Source: a virus
Taxonomy: Duplodnaviria > Heunggongvirae > Uroviricota > Caudoviricetes
IMG/VR virus record: IMGVR_UViG_2740892051_000004
Span: 1 to 48,835 of that record
Direction: 5' to 3' (one strand)
DNA: 48,835 nucleotides
Shown here piece after piece: positions 1-26,209 of the stretch. Each line of letters starts with the position of its first letter. The stretch's first letter is position 1. Below the pieces are notes generated by a model, which worked only from the letters and a program-made list of their open reading frames with translations, was not told the origin of the DNA and searched no databases. The translations under genes were made by a program, and so were the position numbers.

Positions 1-228
1 ATGAGCTTATTGCCTCGGGAAAACGCACCCCAAAAAAGATATAGACTTCTGAGAATATCAGAAGTGATTAATTTGACTGGCTTACCCAAGTCAACAATTT
101 ATCTAAAGATAAAGAATGATGAATTTCCGAACCAAGTTTCTATCGGTTCTCGTTCTGTTGCATGGGTGGAGCATGAAGTTAATGAATGGATAGAGAAGAA
201 TATTCTCAATAGAAAATTAAACTCCTAA
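1..228 (+). CDS. alpA: AlpA-family DNA-binding regulator (prophage CP4-57 AlpA-like)
   Basis: 75 aa; HTH core 'RLLRISEVINLTGLPKSTIY' and C-terminal 'VAWVEHEVNEWI' match the AlpA/Vis/Xis small winged-helix pattern. Confidence 0.75.
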   Translation: MSLLPRENAPQKRYRLLRISEVINLTGLPKSTIYLKIKNDEFPNQVSIGSRSVAWVEHEVNEWIEKNILNRKLNS

Positions 229-2271: not shown

Positions 2272-2301
2272 TTGCCTCACCAGGAATGCGCGGGATATAG
2301 T
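2272..2301 (+). promoter_or_regulatory. candidate sigma70 promoter (P4 PLE-like) upstream of immunity region
   Basis: TTGCCT-N18-TATAGT upstream of seqA. Confidence 0.3.
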
Positions 2302-2332
2302 TTAAAGGTTGCCGCAAAATCGGCAGCCGGGC

Positions 2333-2356
2333 GTAGGAACCCGTGTTATCTGAAGG
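2333..2356 (+). promoter_or_regulatory. seqA-like target of CI immunity RNA
   Basis: GTAGGAA...TCTGAAGG; both arms exactly complementary to seqB (2510..2531). Confidence 0.5.
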
Positions 2357-2469
2357 CGATACTACACGCGCTAGGCGTGTTTTTTTGTGTCGCAGCTTTG
2401 ACTCACCTAAAATTTATGGTGTGGTGGCTGATTGTATTTTTTTATTTTTTACGCCACATCATCAGAATT

Positions 2470-2545
2470 ATGGTAGTCCAGGCGGGGCAGCTTTCGGGCT
2501 GGCCGGTATCCTTCAGAGCCGGTATTCCTACCCCCGTCTGGGCTA
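2470..2545 (+). ncRNA. P4-type CI immunity RNA (C4 antisense RNA-like) containing seqB; ends approximate
   Basis: seqB core CCTTCAGA-GCCGGTA-TTCCTAC at 2510..2531 is antiparallel-complementary to seqA and seqC; sits in a leader upstream of early ORFs as in P4. Confidence 0.45.
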
Positions 2546-2557
2546 CCACCCATGAGC

Positions 2558-2599
2558 GTAGGAACTCCGGTGGTAGCGTTACCCGCTATCTGAAGGAGG
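2558..2599 (+). promoter_or_regulatory. seqC-like target overlapping ribosome-binding site of first early ORF
   Basis: GTAGGAA...TCTGAAGG repeat of seqA, ending in AGGAGG 9 nt before ATG at 2608. Confidence 0.5.
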
Positions 2600-2607
2600 T
2601 TGCCATT

Positions 2608-2811
2608 ATGGCTACAGTCCCTGCTTTATCTCACCCTGAATTTACCTTTGTCTTTCTGGCTGTCCGCCGTACAGACCGTGATGCCCGTCCACGCCCTGTG
2701 CGTGTAATCGCAGAATGCGAGCATGCTGCACGCCTTAAACTTGCCACTGAATTTATCCTGAGCTTTGCTGCCCGTATCCCTGTGAAAAGAGCCGGGGAGG
2801 TGGTTGCATGA
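2608..2811 (+). CDS. hypothetical small early protein (satellite)
   Basis: 68-codon 3' part of track ORF 2221..2811 starting at internal ATG with AGGAGG RBS; upstream part of that ORF spans the RNA region. Confidence 0.5.
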   Translation: MATVPALSHPEFTFVFLAVRRTDRDARPRPVRVIAECEHAARLKLATEFILSFAARIPVKRAGEVVA

Positions 2812-3044
2812 AATCCATGAATTTTAAGCAAGGCTGCATATTGAGTGAACAGGGGGAGAGTCGTCTGTTACGGGCGGCACTGGCCAGTGAGTTTCTTGCA
2901 GAGGTCTTGTCCGTGCCCACAGTGAATGGAGCGAGAACTGTTTCAGCGGAAGGCGCTGCGGCTTTAGTGGCCTGTATTGCCGAACAACTGGATGGCGTTG
3001 TTAAGGAAACCAGCACAATTAAGGGAGTGATGCGCGATGAATAA
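2808..3044 (+). CDS. hypothetical protein (satellite early operon)
   Basis: 78 aa ORF, 4-nt overlap with flanking ORFs (translational coupling). Confidence 0.5.
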   Translation: MKSMNFKQGCILSEQGESRLLRAALASEFLAEVLSVPTVNGARTVSAEGAAALVACIAEQLDGVVKETSTIKGVMRDE

Positions 3045-3447
3045 TAATCAAAATTTAAAGGCGCATGCTTTACGAACAGCAGTCTTACGCTACTACATTG
3101 CTGATGCATTCATTTCCTTAATGGTGCGTGTTCATAATGAACCTGTTTATATTGAAGATGGCGAACGAATAGAACTCTCCCACGAAAAAGTGGTGAGTAA
3201 TATTATTTACCATATTGAAATGCCGTGGGTGAATGAGTTTGGGGCTGATGCTGGTTGCATACTGGCCGCAGAGAAACTGGAAAAAATGCTTAAACCAGGC
3301 TTTATGTCAGAAAATATTCGCCTGTCAGTTTTTGGTGTCACAGAGATGCGTGAGGTTTACCGGGATATTATTTTCGGAGCACCTGATGGCGAACTACCCG
3401 AAGGTTTTGAATTTGTGAAGCCGGAAGGTCAGGAGGTGCTGCTGTGA
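3037..3447 (+). CDS. hypothetical protein upstream of primase (position of P4 eps/orf151)
   Basis: 136 aa ORF overlapping primase start by 4 nt. Confidence 0.55.
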   Translation: MNNNQNLKAHALRTAVLRYYIADAFISLMVRVHNEPVYIEDGERIELSHEKVVSNIIYHIEMPWVNEFGADAGCILAAEKLEKMLKPGFMSENIRLSVFGVTEMREVYRDIIFGAPDGELPEGFEFVKPEGQEVLL

Positions 3448-6131
3448 AAACACCGTCTGTATCCACGATTTCCGGAGCTGCAATTGGGCGCTGGCCTTAT
3501 ATCCTGTCAGCATTAGGTATTAAAGTACCGTCCGCAGGACATCATGGGGCTTGCCCTGCCTGTGGTGGAAAAGATCGTTTTCGACTGGACGATAAAGCGG
3601 GGCGAGGGACGTGGTTTTGTAATCAGTGCGGTCATGGCGATGGTCTTGATCTGGTTCGTCTGGTGACAGGAAGAAAGATAAAAGAAGTCGCCGGGATGGT
3701 ATCTGAGGCGCTTGCATTACCAGAAATACAGGAGAAGCCCGCATTGCCAGCCAGGAAAAAGGCCGCAGGAAAAGAAGCGGGCGCGGAGCGATATACCAGA
3801 CTCAGACAGCAGTCCTGCAATGGTGAGCCGGTCTATCTGACAAATAAGAGCTTACACGGGTATTCACTTCCCTTGCTGTCACAGCCTTTGAATCTGGCCG
3901 GAATAACATTTTCCACCGGTTCATTACTGCTGCCTTTGACGGATATTTCCGGGAATATTACTGGTGGCCAGCTTATCAATCCTGACGGGGATAAAAGTCT
4001 GCTGCCCGGTAGCCAGCTGTCTGGCGCATTCATTGCCCTGACCGATATACCCGCTGAAACACCTGAACAGGTGATTATCACTGAGGGTTTTGCCACGGCG
4101 CTTACCGTCAGTCTGCTGACTGAAGGATGGATCGTGGCGGCTGTCGCTGCCACCAATTTACTGAAGGTGACGGAGCAGATCCGAAAACGCTGGCCGGAAA
4201 CCCGGATCATTCTGGCCGGAGATAATGATCTGGCTGACGGCAAAGAAAACACCGGGCGTATTCAGGCAGAGAAAGCCGCCAAAGCGGTGGATGGCTGGGT
4301 AACGCTCCCTCCGGTACGCCATAAGGCTGACTGGGATGATTATCGGCAGGAAGTGGGGAAAGAACGGGCGAGAGATGCCTTTCGTGAAGAAATGACGCTG
4401 CATGGCAAAGGGCAGACCCGTTTACCAGAAGGGTTCCGGCTGACAAAAGAATATTTGTGGTACGACAAGCTGGTTAATAAGTCTGATGGTGATACAGAGA
4501 TACGTAATATCAAAATTTGCAGTCCGTTGCGGGTGACGGCAATCACCAGTGATGCTGATGGAAGTAATTACGGGCGTTTGCTGGAATGGGAAGATACCAA
4601 CGGAAACAGCCGTAAATGGGCAATGCCGATGGAGATGCTGGGCGGTAGCGGGGAAGAACTGCGCCGCGTTCTGCTGGTTAACGGGCTTTCTTACATCAAC
4701 ATTAACGGCATGGCCAGAGCATTCCTGATGGAATATATCTCGCTGTGTAAACCGGACAGAAAAGTAACCTGTGTGAATAAAACTGGCTGGCACGGCGGGG
4801 TTTACGTTCTCCAGGATGAAGTGATAGGGCGCGAAGCCCAGTCAGTCATCTTACAAACATCGAGTGTGCAGGGGCGTGATTTTCGTGTCAGCGGCACATC
4901 AGAGGGCTGGCGTGAAAATATAGGCCGTTATTGCATAAAGAATGCCCGTCTTGCCTTTGCGGTGAGTCTGGCATTTGCTGCCCCCCTTCTGAAACTGGTT
5001 GGTATCGGCGGTGGAGGTTATCACCTCAAAGGGGAATCCACAGACGGTAAAACCACGACGATGAAAGTGGCTGCATCAGTATGTGGTGGAACAGATTTCT
5101 GGCATACGTGGCGGGCGACGGGGAATGCCTTAGAAGGAACGGCGAGCCGCCGCAATGATGCCACGCTGATGCTGGATGAAATCCGGGAGGTTGACGGCAG
5201 GGAGGCGGGAAATATCGCTTATATGCTGGCTAACGGGCAGGGCAAAGCCAGAGCCAGAACAGATGGTTCGGTAAGGGAAACCAACCGCTGGAATCTGTTG
5301 TTTCTGTCTACCGGGGAACTGTCACTGGTAGAGCATGCGGCAAGCGCCGGGGAACGTACGTATGCCGGGGTTGAGGTCAGAATGATCCAGATCCCAAGCG
5401 ATTCGGGCAAGTATGGCGTGTTTGAAGAACTTCATGGCTTCAGTAGCGGGAAAACCCTGGCTGAGCATCTTGAGCAGCACGTAGCGCATTATCATGGTGC
5501 ACCATTCCGCGACTGGCTGTATTGCCTGACCGCTGATCTGCCGGAACTGACCAGTCAGGCGAAAGCCTTATTGAAAGAGTATACCCGAAGGCTGACGCCG
5601 GAAAATGCCGGGAATCAGGTTGGCCGGGCTGTTACCCGTTTTGCTCTGGTTGCGATGGCCGGGGAGCTGGCCACAAAAGCGGGCATCACAGGATGGCCGG
5701 AGGGAGAGGCCTTTCGTGCCGCTCAAAGCTGTCTGGCTGCATGGATGGCTGACCGGGGCCATACAGCTAATCAGGAAGATAAAGCGGCACTTGAACAGGT
5801 TCGGGACTTCATGACGCGTAATCAGTTCAGTCGGTTTGCTGACTGGAATGACGACAGGAACCGGCCTGTTTCAATGATGGGATTCAGAAAAGTCGATAAA
5901 GGAGACAACGTGACAGAGCCGGTTGTGACGTTCTACGTTCTCCCGTCAGGCTGGAAGGAGATCTGTAAGGGATTTGACTCGCGTAAGGTGGCCAGGTTGT
6001 GTGTGGACGCGGGCTGGCTGAAACCCGGTGAAGATGGCCGGACGCAAAACAGCATTCGCCTGCCAGAAATAGGGCTTAAACGTGTGTACCAGTTCAATAC
6101 ACAGGTACTGGGAAGCGCTGAACCTGAGTGA
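3444..6131 (+). CDS. P4 alpha-type primase-helicase
   Basis: 895 aa; N-terminal zinc ribbon CPACGG...CNQCGH, TOPRIM-like 'ITEGF...ILAGDNDL', Walker A 'GESTDGKTT'. Confidence 0.9.
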   Translation: MKTPSVSTISGAAIGRWPYILSALGIKVPSAGHHGACPACGGKDRFRLDDKAGRGTWFCNQCGHGDGLDLVRLVTGRKIKEVAGMVSEALALPEIQEKPALPARKKAAGKEAGAERYTRLRQQSCNGEPVYLTNKSLHGYSLPLLSQPLNLAGITFSTGSLLLPLTDISGNITGGQLINPDGDKSLLPGSQLSGAFIALTDIPAETPEQVIITEGFATALTVSLLTEGWIVAAVAATNLLKVTEQIRKRWPETRIILAGDNDLADGKENTGRIQAEKAAKAVDGWVTLPPVRHKADWDDYRQEVGKERARDAFREEMTLHGKGQTRLPEGFRLTKEYLWYDKLVNKSDGDTEIRNIKICSPLRVTAITSDADGSNYGRLLEWEDTNGNSRKWAMPMEMLGGSGEELRRVLLVNGLSYININGMARAFLMEYISLCKPDRKVTCVNKTGWHGGVYVLQDEVIGREAQSVILQTSSVQGRDFRVSGTSEGWRENIGRYCIKNARLAFAVSLAFAAPLLKLVGIGGGGYHLKGESTDGKTTTMKVAASVCGGTDFWHTWRATGNALEGTASRRNDATLMLDEIREVDGREAGNIAYMLANGQGKARARTDGSVRETNRWNLLFLSTGELSLVEHAASAGERTYAGVEVRMIQIPSDSGKYGVFEELHGFSSGKTLAEHLEQHVAHYHGAPFRDWLYCLTADLPELTSQAKALLKEYTRRLTPENAGNQVGRAVTRFALVAMAGELATKAGITGWPEGEAFRAAQSCLAAWMADRGHTANQEDKAALEQVRDFMTRNQFSRFADWNDDRNRPVSMMGFRKVDKGDNVTEPVVTFYVLPSGWKEICKGFDSRKVARLCVDAGWLKPGEDGRTQNSIRLPEIGLKRVYQFNTQVLGSAEPE

Positions 6132-6413: not shown

Positions 6414-6686
6414 ATGAAGATGATGAGAATGTACTGCCCCACATGTCAGGCAGTAGCACGGATAGGTAAAACAAACAGGAAACACCCACAACTGTACGAT
6501 GTGTACTGCTATTGCTCTAATGTGGAGTGCGGTCACTCGTTTGTGATGAATGTTGCTTTCTCCCATTCCGTTAGTCCAAGCGCGCTGAACGGGCAGGGAA
6601 GGGTTAAAGAGCTGATTGATGCAATTCCACCCGAGGAACGGGAAAAGGCTTTAAAGTTGCTGCTGGCTGCGCAAAAGAATGGGTAA
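6414..6686 (+). CDS. Ogr/Delta-family zinc-finger late transcription activator
   Basis: 90 aa; 'CPTCQ...16 aa...CYCSNVECGH' C4 zinc finger as in P2 Ogr / P4 Delta. Confidence 0.7.
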   Translation: MKMMRMYCPTCQAVARIGKTNRKHPQLYDVYCYCSNVECGHSFVMNVAFSHSVSPSALNGQGRVKELIDAIPPEEREKALKLLLAAQKNG

Positions 6687-7365: not shown

Positions 7366-8247
7366 ATGAGTCATAATAAAAAGGAATATGCTAAATTTTT
7401 CCGTCGCCCCATTTTTTCATCCTTAGCAAAAGGTAAGGATATTTCGGATTTATTTGGGAGTTTTGATTCTTACTGCTATGAAACACTGTTTTCAAACAAT
7501 GATAATAATGAACATGAGATTTCACTAAGGGATTTATTTACATCATTATATGATTTTTTGCGTCTGAATTATAGAAATGAATATGTTTATAAGACAGCAC
7601 TTGTCAATAAAATAATATTCGGTAAGCACAGCCCAAAAACAAGTTCGTCGTCCATAGAGTTACCAATTAAAAACTCTATAGTGGATGTTGCGGTGTTTAA
7701 TGGTACGTCTACAGCTTACGAGATTAAGACAGAGTATGATTCACCAAAAAGGTTGATTACTCAAGCCCCTGATTATTTGGATGTTTTTGATAAAGTGTAT
7801 ATAGTTACACATCCAGAGTATGCAAGTAAATATTGTGCTTTAAATCTCCCCAGAGTGGGAGTTATGGTTTTGAATAAAAAAGATCAATTGAGTGTCATTA
7901 AGGAGGCAGATTCAAATATTGATTATATTAAAAGTGACAGCTTGTTTTCAGTTCTTAGAAAGGAAGAGTTCTTAGCTATAATAGAAGATTACACTTCAAC
8001 TAAAATAAATATGCCTAACGGATTGGTTTATGAATATTGTAAAGAGATATTCATGCAGATGCCATTAAACATAGCAAATAAATACTTTATCTCTGCTATG
8101 AAAAAAAGATGTAACGATAAAGTTTTTTTGGATTATATTTATTCTCTTCCAGCATGTTTACGTGTTTTAGGTTATGCAACACCATTATCAAGAAAGCAAA
8201 AAGAATTCATCATGAATTTGATGGATGTAAAAATTAAAATTTGTTGA
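7366..8247 (+). CDS. PD-(D/E)xK nuclease-like protein, first gene of AT-rich cargo cassette (candidate defense)
   Basis: 293 aa; 'SIVDVAVFNGTSTAYEIKTEY' gives D...E-x-K catalytic signature; Lys/Asn/Ile-rich, strongly AT-rich DNA. Confidence 0.7.
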   Translation: MSHNKKEYAKFFRRPIFSSLAKGKDISDLFGSFDSYCYETLFSNNDNNEHEISLRDLFTSLYDFLRLNYRNEYVYKTALVNKIIFGKHSPKTSSSSIELPIKNSIVDVAVFNGTSTAYEIKTEYDSPKRLITQAPDYLDVFDKVYIVTHPEYASKYCALNLPRVGVMVLNKKDQLSVIKEADSNIDYIKSDSLFSVLRKEEFLAIIEDYTSTKINMPNGLVYEYCKEIFMQMPLNIANKYFISAMKKRCNDKVFLDYIYSLPACLRVLGYATPLSRKQKEFIMNLMDVKIKIC

Positions 8248-8268
8248 TATCCTCAGGAGTTGTAAGTT

Positions 8269-9219
8269 ATGTATAGCCCATATTTGTATGCGAGAAGTAC
8301 AGAGTTATTATGCCTTAGGGACCTCGTTGCGAAGGGAGTTAGCCTAAATGGTCTGCTACCAATTTTAGAACCAATTAACGTCAATACGAGAAATTTATTA
8401 ACATGTTTAAATGTTTGGAATTCTGACATAATTGTTATCCTTAATCCTTATCAGGAAGATTTTTCTTCACACAATAACGTCTTAACTTTAAATCAAAATT
8501 TATCAAGTGTATTAACAAATAAAAATAATATCATCTCTGGATATCTTATTCAGCCCAATACAACGATTAATGATATTAATAATTGGTTGAATGCTAACTT
8601 AAATAGACGAGTTGCACTTCTATATGATAATCCATCATTATCCAACTCTGATATTCAGTTGTTGGCGACAAATCAATTGATTAGTTATCATGTTGTTTTA
8701 AATAATAAAATGCTTCCTAATCAGTGCGCTCTTCTTCCTTTGTCGAAGTTAATTATTATTAGCGATAACTTTAGAAAGTTAGCAAAAAATGCTGATTATA
8801 ATGGGCCGGAACTTTTCACGCACGCACATCAATTCGTGGGACAAAATTACTTAGGATTTGGCGATTATACAATTACTGGCCAGGTACTAGATCTTGGAGG
8901 TGGTCAACCTTCTGCTGTTGCCGCACATTTGGTGTTCAAGAATTTACAAGCGAATACAGTTTGGATTCGTCATTTTGTATCAAGCAACACGCAACGAGGA
9001 AGTTCAAATGTTACTGCAAAATTTTTAGATGTTTCAGATCAAATTACAAATCTTGTTCCCCAACATCCAACCCAGTTTGGCAGCAACATTGGTCTTAACT
9101 ATTATTATTACAATAGTCAACCAACTGTAAGGCATTTCCCTGGGTTGCCAAAAAACAAACAGTATCAAATTACTCACCATATTTGTTTCATGCTGGATTT
9201 AATAGCAGGTCGTATTTAA
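8269..9219 (+). CDS. hypothetical protein, second gene of cargo cassette (partner of nuclease-like protein)
   Basis: 316 aa, 21 nt after upstream gene, same AT-rich composition; N-terminus 'MYSPYLYARSTELLCLRDL'; 3' end overlaps integrase stop by 21 bp. Confidence 0.7.
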   Translation: MYSPYLYARSTELLCLRDLVAKGVSLNGLLPILEPINVNTRNLLTCLNVWNSDIIVILNPYQEDFSSHNNVLTLNQNLSSVLTNKNNIISGYLIQPNTTINDINNWLNANLNRRVALLYDNPSLSNSDIQLLATNQLISYHVVLNNKMLPNQCALLPLSKLIIISDNFRKLAKNADYNGPELFTHAHQFVGQNYLGFGDYTITGQVLDLGGGQPSAVAAHLVFKNLQANTVWIRHFVSSNTQRGSSNVTAKFLDVSDQITNLVPQHPTQFGSNIGLNYYYYNSQPTVRHFPGLPKNKQYQITHHICFMLDLIAGRI

Positions 9220-10374
9220 TAAGCTAGCGTACCATTCCATCATTACTTGTCGATCTTTAATATATTGCGCATGATTGTAAGTACCTCGAATAGAGTTCTT
9301 ATCAACATGCGCAAGCTGCATTTCAATCCAGGCACTTTCAAACCCATGCTCATGCAAGATGGTGCTCATGGTATGCCTGAAACCGTGACCCGTTAACCGA
9401 CCGTGATAACCCAGTAGTTTTATCACTTTGTTGATGCTGGCTTCGCTCATTGGTTTACTGACGTCATTCCGGCCAGGGAAAACGAGGCTGTAATTCCCTG
9501 TTATTTCTTGCAGCTTTTTCAGGATATTGATCGCCTGAGTTGATAACGGAACCAGATGGGGGCGGCGTTTCTTCATCCGTTCTTTGGGGATCTCCCATAA
9601 GGCATTATCTAAATCAAACTCAGCCCATTCCGCTGCACGTAGTTCAATTGTTCGCACGCCTGTTAGCATCAACAGCTGCGTGGCGTATTTGGTAACTAAA
9701 CTGCCCTGATAGTTATCCAGAGCATTAACGAACTCGGGCAACTCGCTTTCAGTCAGGAACGGGAAGTGTTGGGTTTTAGGTTTGTTGAGTGCGATAGCTA
9801 AATCGGGTGCAAAATTATACTTTGCTCTACCAGTGGCAACAGCATAACGAAGCACTTCACCACAGCGGCGGCGGATCTTACTGGTTTGCTCTAGCGCACC
9901 TCTTTTCTCTATTTTTTGCAGGACGGTTAGCAGTTCTAATGGTTCAATCTGCTCAATTGGGCGCTGGCCGATAAAAGGAAAAATATCCTTTTCCATACAA
10001 TTGAGAACCTCTTTTGCATAACCCTCTGACCAGGTGGCTTTTTTCGATGAGTGCCATTCTCTGGCCACAGACTCAAAGCTGTTCTCATGCGCGAACTGCA
10101 AAGCAATCTTATCTGCTTTTCTGGCTTCACTTGGGTTTATCCCGTTGGCTAACATCGAACGCGCTTCATCACGTTTGGTACGTGCCTGTGCCAACGACAC
10201 ATCGCCATATACGCCAAAGGAAATCATCTTAGGCTTACCTGCAAAGCGATAGCGAAAACGCCAGCCTTTACTGCCCGCTGTGTCGATCAGGAGTGATAGC
10301 CCCATACCATCGTTAAGCGTATAGGGTTTGTCCTTCGGTTTTGCTCTTTTTATTTGGATGTCAGATAGCAGCAT
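9199..10374 (-). CDS. int: tyrosine integrase, P4 family with arm-type N-terminal domain
   Basis: Start set at internal Met 'MLLSDIQIKRAKPK'; C-terminal catalytic 'HGFRHT...LAHVD...RGTYNHAQY'. Confidence 0.9.
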   Translation of the reverse strand: MLLSDIQIKRAKPKDKPYTLNDGMGLSLLIDTAGSKGWRFRYRFAGKPKMISFGVYGDVSLAQARTKRDEARSMLANGINPSEARKADKIALQFAHENSFESVAREWHSSKKATWSEGYAKEVLNCMEKDIFPFIGQRPIEQIEPLELLTVLQKIEKRGALEQTSKIRRRCGEVLRYAVATGRAKYNFAPDLAIALNKPKTQHFPFLTESELPEFVNALDNYQGSLVTKYATQLLMLTGVRTIELRAAEWAEFDLDNALWEIPKERMKKRRPHLVPLSTQAINILKKLQEITGNYSLVFPGRNDVSKPMSEASINKVIKLLGYHGRLTGHGFRHTMSTILHEHGFESAWIEMQLAHVDKNSIRGTYNHAQYIKDRQVMMEWYASLLNTTCY

Positions 10375-10622
10375 GTGTATAGAAAAAAGATCGAACTCAG
10401 TTATACACAATGTTATACGCAAAGATGTATAGATTCCATTAGAAATAATGGTACTTTGCTGGACGAGTATAAGGAGATGATATCAGTTAAAACAGTGAGT
10501 TATGGAATTAATTGAACTTAGTGAGAAGTGTTCATGGTGTCCCCTGCAGACATCTACTTGGCGCGGCAGGGGATTGATTGGAATGGTGTTTTTTAGATGT
10601 GAAAAATATTTTACCCGCTATT

Positions 10623-19883: not shown

Positions 19884-20714
19884 ATGGGCGTCGTTAAGTT
19901 AGCTGATTACAGGCCTCAACTGGAGGTCGTGGAGCATCGCGTGGCAGAACTCGAAGATGGCTACACTCGGACTGCAAACACACTGTTAGAAGCCGCCATG
20001 CTTTCTGGACTTACTCTACATCAGTTACTGATTGTTATGGCTGTGTGGCGCAAGACATACGGTTACAACAAAAAAATAGATTGGATCGGAAACGAACAGT
20101 TCGCTGAACTCACTGGCATGGCACCAACCAAATGCTCTACCGCCAAAAACGAGCTTATCAGAATGGGAGTTCTCATTCAGGTGGGGCGTCAAGTTGGTAT
20201 GAATACAAACATTTCCGAGTGGAAAACGAAAGTTAACGGATTCGGTAAAACATTTACCAATTCGGTAAAACAAACCTTCACCAAATCGGTAAAAAGCAAT
20301 TTACCGAATCAGTCAAACACAAAAGACAATATACAAAAGACAATAAATACAAATACCCCCTTACCCCCTAGCGGGGGTGGTGATGGGCAGGTTAAACCTG
20401 AACGTCGCAAGGCAGAACGAATCGACTACGAATCCTTCCTGAACGCCTACAACACCGAAGTCGGTGACAGACTGCCACACGCTGTTGCGGTCAACGAGAA
20501 ACGCAAACGCCGCCTGAAGAAAATCATCCCGCAACTGAAAACGCCAAACGTGGACGGTTTCAGAGCGTATGTCAGGGCGTTTGTGCATCAGGCCAAGCCG
20601 TTTTACTTCGGAGACAACGACACGGGCTGGACGGCAGATTTTGATTACCTGCTGAGGGAAGACTCGTTAACGGGAGTTCGGGAAGGGAAGTTTGCAGACA
20701 GGGGGATTGCATGA
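19884..20714 (+). CDS. O: replication initiator O
   Basis: 276 aa in O position; internal repeat '[16 protein letters not shown]' encoded by iterons. Confidence 0.8.
20238..20360 (+). repeat. replication origin: iterons plus AT-rich tract inside O gene
   Basis: Three direct TCGGTAAAA(C/A)A repeats plus inverted copy, followed by A-rich stretch. Confidence 0.5.
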
Positions 20715-26053: not shown

Positions 26054-26128
26054 GGGTCAGTCGTATAAAGGTCATTACGGAAGGCTGTTAACCTTCTTAT
26101 CGTGGTTCGAGTCCACGCTGTCCCGCCA
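26054..26128 (+). tRNA. tRNA, anticodon GTT (Asn), hand-folded
   Basis: Acceptor stem with one mismatch, D-loop GG, anticodon loop CTGTTAA, T-arm CGTGG-TTCGAGT-CCACG, 3' CCA encoded. Confidence 0.55.
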
Positions 26129-26133
26129 AACAT

Positions 26134-26209
26134 GCTGGTTTAGCTCCAATGGTAGAGCAGTCGCCTTGTAAGCGAATGGGTAGCGGTTCAAGTCCGTTAA
26201 CCAGCACCA
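26134..26209 (+). tRNA. tRNA-Thr (anticodon TGT), hand-folded
   Basis: Acceptor GCTGGTT/AACCAGC, D-arm GCTC-CAATGGT-AGAGC, anticodon loop CTTGTAA, T-loop TTCAAGT, CCA encoded. Confidence 0.65.

Follow-up and report, generated by a model that had tools for sequence, protein, structure and literature searches.

A probable antisense-RNA immunity switch in a P4-like satellite of the E. coli chromosome with a target-recognition sequence unlike that of phage P4

Antisense-RNA immunity switches of the kind found in phage P4 are well understood regulators. P4 reportedly has the terminators t1, t4 and timm (work of Briani and colleagues from 2000, also given in secondary summaries). In P1, the a' and b' sequences of c4 are said to act on a1/b1 and a2/b2, controlling icd-ant, according to Citron and Schuster in 1990 and Biere and colleagues in 1992. 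A different immunity specificity in retronphage phiR73, a P4-like satellite, was reportedly mapped to seqA, seqB and seqC by Sabbattini and colleagues in 1996. Published summaries of the P4 mechanism describe seqA as a target that promotes termination (PMC4825925, PMC10111431), and IsrK-like RNA has been equated with P4 seqA (PMC3632133, PMC4825925, PMC10111431). TraDIS analysis found IsrK-like elements of P4-like prophages to be required in S. Typhi (PMC3632133). In Gifsy-1, a processed CI-like RNA, STnc1160, carries complementary sequences (PMC4825925).

The window analyzed here, the whole 48,835-nt stretch of DNA, contains an antisense-RNA immunity switch that belongs to a P4-like satellite of the E. 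coli chromosome. In our reading this switch serves the immunity (the maintenance of lysogeny) of a P4-related satellite prophage and very probably works as it does in P4. The first-pass annotation had proposed a P4-type architecture in which seqA and seqC repeats flank a complementary seqB, and several lines of evidence bear this out. Rfam searches matched both the C4/CI and the IsrK/SeqA-like families, and P4 itself gives the same pair of matches in the same order and with the same spacing. The region aligns with PLE-seqA-cI-seqC-kil of P4, with identical promoter hexamers. Concerted change of seqA, seqB and seqC is seen over 83 relatives, and the neighboring Vis/AlpA, Eta/Kil and integrase genes, together with the N-terminal region of the primase, match P4 proteins. 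The three strings lie exactly where they had been placed, and the two seqB arms are exactly reverse-complementary to both arms of seqA and both arms of seqC. One small correction concerns the end coordinate first given, 2610, which is the G of the ATG (start codon 2608–2610). The features are collected in Table 1.

Table 1. Features of the immunity module and of the surrounding satellite, in window coordinates.
Feature	Position	Strand	Basis or remark
AlpA/Vis-like regulator	1..228	+	Pfam PF05930, E = 5e-20; 46% identity to P4 Vis
Eta-like ORF, 196 aa	2221..2811	+	49% identity to P4 Eta frame over 180 aa, E = 6e-48
PLE-like sigma-70 promoter	2272..2301	+	promoter scan; TTGCCT, 18-nt spacer, TATAGT; activity predicted
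SeqA/IsrK-like leader RNA	2308..2385	+	full-length RF01394 isrK match, 68.9 bits (gathering score 50)
seqA arm a GTAGGAA	2333..2339	+	pairs with seqB 2525-2531
seqA arm b TCTGAAGG	2349..2356	+	pairs with seqB 2510-2517
Intrinsic terminator	2364..2385	+	terminator scan; GC-rich 6-bp stem and T run
CI/C4-type antisense RNA	2466..2553	+	full-length RF01695 match, 81.1 bits (gathering score 45)
seqB arm b' CCTTCAGA	2510..2517	+	12-nt loop of CI hairpin 2 (Rfam consensus structure)
seqB arm a' TTCCTAC	2525..2531	+	unpaired junction preceding the 3' strand of the CI stem (Rfam consensus)
Alternative helix	2542..2577	+	2542-2550 (3' strand of CI basal stem) with 2569-2577
seqC arm a GTAGGAA	2558..2564	+	pairs with seqB a'
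seqC arm b TCTGAAGG	2589..2596	+	pairs with seqB b'
Kil/Icd-like ORF, 67 aa	2608..2811	+	NCBIfam NF033153 'host cell division inhibitor Icd-like', E = 5e-19
Primase-helicase	3444..6131	+	Pfam Zn_Ribbon_Prim, Toprim_3, DUF927
Satellite integrase	9199..10374	-	40% identity to P4 Int, E = 9e-100

Transcription is predicted to start near 2308. At the homologous position P4 has -35 and -10 hexamers identical to those of the predicted promoter, again 18 nt apart. The -10 hexamer is nearly invariant in the alignment of relatives. In the predicted transcript, seqA belongs to a structured leader RNA closed by the intrinsic terminator. This leader consists of a first hairpin, a second hairpin with seqA arm a in its loop, the single-stranded arm b, which follows arm a after a spacer of 9 nt, and the terminator. 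The same hairpins appear in the minimum free energy (MFE) fold, and the homologous P4 site scores 60.8 bits with RF01394; folded alone, the leader has a thermodynamic z-score of -0.7, which is not significant. The terminator stem is kept among relatives, and in 17 of 42 sequences a G-C pair is replaced by C-G. From its position relative to P4, as reported by Briani and colleagues, we take this terminator to be the equivalent of t1. Equivalents of the P4 downstream terminators t4 and timm were not located. A C-rich, G-poor stretch at 2608–2700 (C 0.34, G 0.20) is the only hint of one.

The covariance search and the RNA fold that the first-pass annotation had named as checks both support its reading of the antisense RNA. 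C4 was found at the score listed in Table 1, with P4's own CI scoring 74.9 bits against the same model, and the CI fold has an MFE of -47.8 kcal/mol and a z-score of -5.3, with none of 200 shuffles folding as well. The fold consists of a long basal stem, 2471–2487 with 2532–2548, and two internal hairpins. Across 42 sequences, pairing is complete (100%) in the long stem and in internal hairpin 1, with compensatory changes present. The seqB arms b' and a' are separated by GCCGGTA, and the MFE fold puts two weak pairs inside the 12-nt loop that holds b'. A small RNA is probably made and processed from the module, and the mature CI RNA would be expected to measure about 70–80 nt (about 2471–2548).

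The arms of seqC are separated by 24 nt, and the overlap of seqC with the AGGAGG ribosome-binding site (RBS) of the first early ORF is as first reported: the end of arm b shares 3 nt with the Shine-Dalgarno sequence at 2594–2599, ahead of the ATG at 2608. Folded alone, the region from seqC to the kil start has a z-score of -1.1, which is not significant. In this fold CUCC (2565–2568) pairs with GGAG of the Shine-Dalgarno sequence; both motifs are invariant among relatives, so covariation cannot test their pairing. RNAalifold independently predicted an alternative helix between the 3' strand of the CI basal stem and sequence downstream of CI. This helix is 98.7% paired among relatives, with both sides changed in 5 of 9 pairs and slid controls at 22–63%, and a small GAG/CTC stem on top of it places seqC arm a in a loop. 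The alternative helix and the CI basal stem are mutually exclusive. Its covariation and its competition with the basal stem suggest a possible co-transcriptional choice between a CI-producing and a seqC-presenting fold, a role that we infer. In the literature searched we found no description of such a helix for P4.

Across the whole 48.8-kb window, TCTGAAGG occurs only at the seqA and seqC sites and its reverse complement only at 2510. Of 3000 dinucleotide-preserving shuffles of 2272–2610, 8 placed some 8-mer between two copies of its reverse complement. The full two-armed triple appeared in no shuffle, which speaks strongly against the coincidence at first allowed as conceivable. Related modules were collected by scanning genome contigs with a scaffold pattern of 17 specified bases and then applying an nhmmer profile, with which 129 of 239 segments scored, 98 of them near full length. 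Many pattern matches outside Enterobacterales were due to chance and were removed by the profile. The resulting 83 unique modules come from Enterobacterales and viral contigs, and 76 of them keep all four arm pairings. Overall, seqA:seqB is 98.3% paired with both sides changed in 12 of 15 pairs, and seqB:seqC is 96.2% paired with both sides changed in 13 of 15. By arm, pairing amounts to 99.0% for seqA arm a (both sides changed in 6 of 7 pairs), 97.6% for seqA arm b (6 of 8), 100% for seqC arm a (6 of 7) and 92.8% for seqC arm b (7 of 8), where some unpaired cells stem from alignment shifts of 1–3 columns. Slid controls for these helices are 36–51% paired, and the observed covariation score was reached in 0 of 500 shuffles.

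The 83 sequences contain 37 seqB specificities, combined from 6 a' alleles and 21 b' alleles, and a single b' allele occurs with up to four a' alleles. Full pairing is found in just 0.5% of non-cognate seqA × seqB combinations. Two relatives, L229 and L008, have a seqA mismatched to their own seqB and a seqC that is still matched, which suggests that seqA is the more dispensable partner.

The entire module is contained in the conserved eta-like ORF, which begins upstream of the promoter, crosses the three RNA sites and shares its reading frame with kil. This ORF matches phrog_6928 (E = 8e-57), and in 77 of 81 relatives no stop interrupts its frame over at least the 100 codons that precede the kil ATG; the ATG itself is kept in 79 of the 81, with an ORF length of 63–67 codons in most. 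The Kil/Icd-like ORF, 58% identical to the old 'cI' ORF of P4 over the region they share, would be the first gene under control of the switch. Two ORFs of 78 and 136 aa follow, matching only PHROGs of unknown function and containing no Ant, KilA, Bro or other Pfam/NCBIfam domain, and the primase comes directly next. The N-terminal 320 aa of the primase-helicase are 38% identical to P4 alpha. The switch would be expected to block expression of this gene, which serves replication.

The satellite measures approximately 10.5 kb and comprises AlpA/Vis, Eta/Kil, primase, Ogr/Delta-like and integrase genes at a tRNA-Arg site. The part of the satellite within the window has the AlpA/Vis-like gene at its left end, and the element ends at a 15-nt copy of the tRNA-Arg 3' end, at 10535–10549. 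The integrase is also annotated in RefSeq at a near-identical locus of E. coli SK1144; comparison of the two sequences revealed agreement, one mismatch aside, up to 10549, followed by divergence. The module is internal to the satellite, and the lambdoid prophage of the window starts only after 10549. About 420 complete E. coli genome records contain the satellite at an identity of at least 99%, and in many E. coli genomes it is fixed at a single chromosomal site. The class GTAGGAA/TCTGAAGG occurs in about 8% of complete E. coli genomes. Int, AlpA/Vis and the alpha N-terminus match P4 clearly. BLAST against P4 proteins returned no Sid, Psu or Epsilon match in the satellite, and the matches to Delta (an Ogr/Delta zinc finger) and to cII are weak. 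As judged from its gene content, the satellite is related to P4 and does not carry the canonical full core set (int, alpA, alpha, delta, sid, psu, epsilon). Between alpA and the eta-like ORF lie a P2-family capsid homologue, a 286-aa gene and a hairpin at about 2149–2170, and given these two extra genes and the hairpin the vis-eta translational coupling of P4 may not apply.

By homology with P4, on which promoter firing, CI processing and stability, and termination all rest here, we propose the following mechanism. The PLE-like promoter would constitutively drive transcription of the leader, with part of the transcripts ending at the intrinsic terminator as a 78-nt SeqA/IsrK-like RNA. Read-through transcripts would be processed, by RNase P/PNPase as in immunity of the P4 type, to a stable, tRNA-like CI RNA in which b' is displayed by a hairpin loop and a' by a junction. 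Pairing of these two short sequences with seqA of nascent leaders would raise termination at the first terminator, and CI would thus limit its own synthesis. Pairing with seqC would cover the kil/icd RBS and block translation, and would lead to premature termination ahead of the downstream genes, including the primase-helicase; with kil/icd and these genes blocked, the satellite would remain quiescent. A superinfecting satellite with the same arms would likewise be repressed. When transcription arrives from further upstream, as from the P4 late promoter upstream of vis, ribosomes on the eta-like ORF would override the block.

The same RNAs could be used according to the IsrK logic of Gifsy-1. 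The 2308–2385 RNA would then be a trans regulator that pairs with the CI-like sequence, either free or in a long transcript, and sequestration of that sequence would open the RBS of the first ORF and activate the downstream genes, which goes beyond a role as autoregulatory target of CI; the scheme is compatible with the P4 model. The full-length isrK match fits this logic, as does the leader itself: it and seqC have both arms in common and must be competitors for CI. RNAalifold also pairs seqA with seqB in cis in the full-length transcript, a pairing extended by invariant flanking pairs. In Gifsy-1, IsrK activates translation of orf45-anrP in trans and processed STnc1160 exists (PMC4825925), and the IsrK-like elements needed in S. 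Typhi belong to P4-like prophages (PMC3632133). However, the role described for P4 seqA is that of a termination-promoting target (PMC4825925, PMC10111431), and the decoy test of the IsrK authors themselves gave an unexpected result. The loss of the seqA match in L229 and L008, with seqC still matched, also speaks against a leader that acts in this way, and searches of Pfam, NCBIfam and PHROGs found no AnrP homologue or antirepressor domain downstream of the module. We regard this logic as rather unlikely at the present locus. The membership of CI in the Rfam family of P1/P7 C4, and the Icd-like first ORF, would also suit an organization of the P1/P7 immI or N15 type, in which C4 RNA controls icd-ant, an antirepressor inactivates a protein repressor, and replication genes are not the direct target. 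Related modules do occur in PY54, phiKO2, the P1-like RCS47 and Stx/phiP27-type phages, and one of these modules carries the annotation 'putative antirepressor'. What makes this organization highly improbable here is the downstream region, where neither the 78-aa nor the 136-aa ORF has an Ant, KilA or Bro domain and the primase comes directly after, together with the P4 matches of Eta, Vis, Int and the primase N-terminus. Megablast against phage records returned only two short Klebsiella-phage matches; the more sensitive blastn mode recovered P4, N15-like, Stx and P1-like relatives, and P4 is the sole phage record of the searched collection that covers 96% of the module.

The absence of Sid, Psu and Epsilon homologues and the fixed chromosomal site shared by many E. 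coli genomes raise another question, namely whether these are the sequences of a once-functional satellite that now regulate nothing in a cryptic prophage. Complementarity would be expected to break first under such decay, yet none of the 30 arm base pairs has been lost. The promoter hexamers are also the same as those of P4, and the CI fold, the terminator, the RBS and the Eta/Kil, primase and integrase ORFs are uninterrupted, so that an inactive relic is very unlikely. That unrelated short repeats are complementary by chance has only the shortness of the arms (7 + 8 nt) in its favor, and the shuffles that failed to reproduce the arrangement, the two independent covariance-model matches and the three-site covariation in 83 relatives reduce its probability to a negligible level. 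The reading that we retain is that of a switch of the P4 type.

For the biology of RNA regulation this locus carries little weight, because its architecture and mechanism were solved decades ago in P4 and P1. Both RNAs are already Rfam families, and published work ties them to P4-like satellites. The value is practical: at the SK1144 locus RefSeq gives a protein only, naming the whole 196-aa ORF 'Icd-like', and lists no RNA feature. Reading the arms also offers a simple predictor of which satellites should exclude one another, and the specificity of this module is common in E. coli. It is conceivable, although on balance doubtful, that the module is one member of a large, unsurveyed combinatorial addressing system and, in addition, that the alternative helix serves as a co-transcriptional fold choice. 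In such an addressing system, a conserved scaffold and two short arms would define dozens of mutually heteroimmune satellite classes.

Among the closest described systems is the P4 immunity region, with which this locus has in common the order PLE - seqA/t1 - cI (CI RNA, seqB) - seqC - kil/eta and a near-identical scaffold. In P4, too, the seqB arms occupy the same structural positions, seqC lies over the kil RBS, and kil is nested in eta. The arms themselves are different, GTGAGAA/TTCACAGG in P4 and GTAGGAA/TCTGAAGG here, and all three sites differ from P4 in concert; the target-recognition sequence is thus unlike that of P4 and, read from sequence, would represent another immunity specificity. 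Predicted energies are -25.9 and -31.3 kcal/mol for the cognate duplexes and -9.4 to -17.8 kcal/mol for cross-pairings with P4. Arms unlike those of P4 and weak predicted cross-pairing point to a different immunity class, and the element is probably heteroimmune to P4. Compared with P4, the first terminator and CI lie about 27 nt closer together, the C-terminal half of the primase is of the DUF927 type, Sid, Psu and Epsilon have no homologue, and the P2-family capsid homologue and the 286-aa gene are inserted between alpA and eta.

With P1/P7 immI c4 the module shares the Rfam family RF01695, an Icd-like first ORF, and two-armed recognition of an upstream and a downstream target, the latter over the icd RBS. 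It differs from immI in having no downstream antirepressor gene and in being part of a satellite rather than a plasmid-prophage, and its output would be control of replication genes. Roughly 890 E. coli plasmid matches to the CI part were considered as P1-type plasmid prophages, an assignment rejected on one example, an IncI-type replicon (PK-repZ pseudoknot, RepA, NusG-like protein, TraC) in which an Rfam match to isrK was sought and was absent. In the N15-like telomere phages PY54 and phiKO2, which have a secondary immunity/antirepressor locus, BLAST similarity is 80–83% over both the leader and the CI parts, whereas the downstream genes and the host element are others. The Gifsy-1 locus of Salmonella, IsrK - STnc1160 - orf45 - anrP, has the same succession of a terminated IsrK leader, a CI-like RNA and a small ORF, but there it belongs to a lambdoid prophage in which an antirepressor and an antiterminator are driven and IsrK is a trans-activator, while here it belongs to a satellite. 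With phiR73 the likeness is one of principle, in that the scaffold is conserved and specificity is set by concerted changes at the three sites.

The region between 2272 and 2610 is correctly described as a P4-type RNA immunity module, in which seqB of the antisense CI RNA (C4 family) is complementary to two-armed sites, seqA and seqC. The first-pass annotation had claimed this architecture from the repeats, and the string positions of all three sites confirmed the coordinates. The 8-mer TCTGAAGG occurs only twice in the whole 48.8-kb window, in seqA and seqC, while its reverse complement is confined to 2510, in seqB. An Rfam scan of the window at the gathering score reported four features, namely C4, isrK and two tRNAs far downstream. 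The covariance match to C4 bears out the proposal, as does RNA folding, in which the CI region takes the family structure (-47.8 kcal/mol, z = -5.3). In that Rfam structure the b' arm of seqB lies in a hairpin loop and the a' arm in the junction ahead of the closing stem.

Features of the satellite and its immunity module (window positions)
Feature	Position	Sequence or match
AlpA/Vis	1-228	46% identity to P4 Vis
286-aa ORF, function unknown	246-1106	precedes capsid homologue; no match in Pfam, NCBIfam or PHROGs
P2-family major capsid homologue	1129-2133	PF05125, E = 9.5e-67; phrog_70
GC-rich hairpin, then weak T tract	2149-2170	GACCCGCC...GGCGGGTC, read by eye
Eta-like ORF, 196 aa	2221-2811	49% identity to P4 Eta, E = 6e-48
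IsrK-like leader	2308-2385	RF01394, 68.9 bits
seqA	2333-2339, 2349-2356	GTAGGAA, TCTGAAGG
C4 antisense RNA (CI)	2466-2553	RF01695, 81.1 bits
seqB	2510-2517, 2525-2531	CCTTCAGA, GCCGGTA, TTCCTAC
seqC	2558-2564, 2589-2596	GTAGGAA, TCTGAAGG
Ribosome-binding site	2594-2599	AGGAGG
Kil/Icd-like ORF, 67 aa	2608-2811	NF033153; start codon 2608-2610; nested in frame within eta-like ORF
Two small ORFs	2808-3447	match only PHROGs of unknown function
Primase-helicase	3444-6131	N-terminus 38% identity to P4 alpha
Ogr/Delta zinc finger	6414-6686	PF04606
sce7726/sce7725 pair	7366-9219	sce7726 matches P4 cII, BLAST E = 1e-9
Integrase	9199-10374	minus strand; 40% identity to P4 Int
Copy of tRNA-Arg 3' end, 15 nt	10535-10549	ends satellite
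tRNA-Asn and tRNA-Thr	26054-26209	in downstream prophage

The window begins with a P4-related satellite whose gene set is non-canonical. BLAST against the P4 proteins found no homologues of Sid, Psu or Epsilon in the satellite, and the P2-family capsid homologue may represent a different way to exploit the capsid assembly of a helper. The sce7726 protein is homologous to P4 cII, which is itself annotated as 'sce7726 family'; BLAST found nothing in P4 for sce7725, which resembles the arrangement there, in which the gene neighbouring cII is annotated 'beta family protein'. The pair adjoins the integrase gene, the position reported for anti-phage cargo in P4-like satellites (PMC9122126). In 77/81 relatives the eta frame has no stop codon within at least the 100 codons that precede the kil ATG, so the eta-like ORF over the RNA genes is conserved, as in P4. 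In L241, the near-identical locus of E. coli SK1144, RefSeq labels the whole 196-aa ORF (20082-20672) 'host cell division inhibitor Icd-like protein' and gives neither CI nor the leader an RNA gene. The hairpin lies directly after the capsid-like gene, approximately 50 nt ahead of the ATG of the eta-like ORF, and was not among the terminators called by the scan. It could reduce the read-through that enters the immunity region from alpA, in contrast to P4, where vis abuts eta.

The segment 2140-3100 is present at 99% identity or more in 421 E. coli records, and most of it in 448 of 5426 complete genomes. The element in SK1144 is flanked by dsdC and tRNA-Arg, and the window matches that genome with one mismatch up to 10549, which is 15 nt into the 3' end of tRNA-Arg. 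Past this point SK1144 carries the whole tRNA-Arg, but the window runs into a different prophage, lambdoid or P22-like, so that satellite and prophage are arranged in tandem at one attachment site.

Relatives were sought in genome and viral contigs with a pattern built from the conserved leader hairpins only, to leave the arms unbiased, and segments with a near-full-length match to a window-plus-P4 profile were kept. This gave 98 modules (83 unique sequences, including the window and P4); the named genomes are all Enterobacterales. The 83 sequences contain 37 seqB types built from 6 a' and 21 b' alleles. In 76 of them every base pair of the four arm pairings is Watson-Crick or G-U, while only 0.5% of non-cognate seqA-seqB combinations pair fully. 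In an alignment of 42 sequences, one per arm combination, 98.3% of seqA:seqB cells are paired (slid controls, 40-51%) and 12 of 15 pairs have changed on both sides; for seqB:seqC the values are 96.2% (36-46%) and 13 of 15. The observed covariation score was reached by none of 500 shuffles for either pairing, and RNAalifold predicted seqA:seqB with no structure supplied. Pairing within the internal helices of CI and the leader is 97.3%, and compensatory changes occur there as well.

The three commonest a-arm alleles, GTAGGAA, GTGAGAA and GTGGAAA, differ only from purine to purine at positions 3-5 (alignment columns 62-68 and 281-287, window 2333-2339 and 2525-2531). One b' allele can accompany up to four a' alleles. 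Reassortment of arms would require three separate sites to change together, so recombination seems a less likely route than gradual change by way of G-U wobble intermediates, although this is speculation. The alignment also supports a helix between 2542-2550, the 3' strand of the CI basal stem, and 2569-2577 in the seqC spacer (98.7% paired, 5 of 9 pairs changed on both sides). RNAalifold independently predicts it, capped by a small stem presenting seqC arm a in its loop, which mirrors seqA arm a in its hairpin loop. This helix and the CI basal stem are mutually exclusive, so the transcript, before processing, may choose between the two folds. Further work might be worthwhile only on this helix and on the variety of arm combinations.

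Chance complementarity of short repeats, a concern of the first-pass annotation, is excluded, as the two-armed triple appeared in 0/3000 dinucleotide-preserving shuffles of 2272-2610. An inactive relic is unlikely, and nothing within the module is broken. The reading as a P1-type icd-ant module fails, since searches of Pfam, NCBIfam and PHROGs found no antirepressor gene. It is plausible that the short leader RNA acts as an IsrK-type decoy or activator, which is compatible with P4-type immunity. Bearing on this, in two relatives, L229 (8567-8946) and L008 (317-606), the seqA arms are of another specificity than the module's own seqB, with which seqC continues to match. By their arms these modules look like recombinants, and they suggest that seqA is a less essential partner than seqC; if both are viable, a matching seqA is not essential.

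C4-family RNA also occurs on plasmids, and approximately 890 plasmid places match the CI part by sequence search. In one example, a 93-kb conjugative IncI-type E. coli plasmid (NZ_CP027327.1), the RNA (77.5 bits; positions 2498-2585 of locus L242) lies approximately 850 nt from the PK-repZ pseudoknot and repA, and is followed by genes for an HTH regulator, a NusG-like protein and TraC. It lacks an isrK-like leader upstream, and RefSeq places an 'ash family protein' CDS right on top of it. The RNA shares the a' arm TTCCTAC with the window, whereas its b' arm differs.

The complementarity, RNA families and conserved ORFs of the window fit the P4 model (summarised in PMC4825925 and PMC10111431). 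The leader would be transcribed from a constitutive promoter and partly terminate past seqA, and read-through RNA would be processed to stable CI. Pairing of CI with seqA and seqC would then cause premature termination and keep kil and the replication genes silent, until transcripts from an upstream late promoter were translated through eta, which would override the block. In P4, seqA pairing reportedly boosts termination at the first terminator, t1, giving CI autoregulation, and the main block is reported to lie downstream of cI, at t4 and the Rho-dependent timm (Briani et al., 2000). Equivalents of t4 and timm were not located in the module of the window; the beginning of kil is rich in C and poor in G, which is consistent with Rho loading there but shows no more.

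The P4-type assignment is upheld by P4 itself (NC_001609), as an Rfam scan of its immunity region gave the C4 and isrK families in the same order and spacing. Both elements also have the -35 and -10 hexamers TTGCCT and TATAGT separated by 18 nt, the first leader hairpin, the terminator with its T run, the entire CI scaffold, and the ribosome-binding site and first codons of the downstream ORF. In contrast, the three recognition sites differ, and do so in concert: the seqA/seqC arms are GTGAGAA and TTCACAGG in P4 but GTAGGAA and TCTGAAGG in the window, and the seqB arms are CCTGTGAA and TTCTCAC against CCTTCAGA and TTCCTAC. The module is thus of its own specificity class. Computed cognate duplexes in the window reach -25.9 kcal/mol for seqA and -31.3 kcal/mol for seqC, compared with -9.4 to -17.8 kcal/mol for cross-pairings with P4, and the element is therefore predicted to be heteroimmune with P4.
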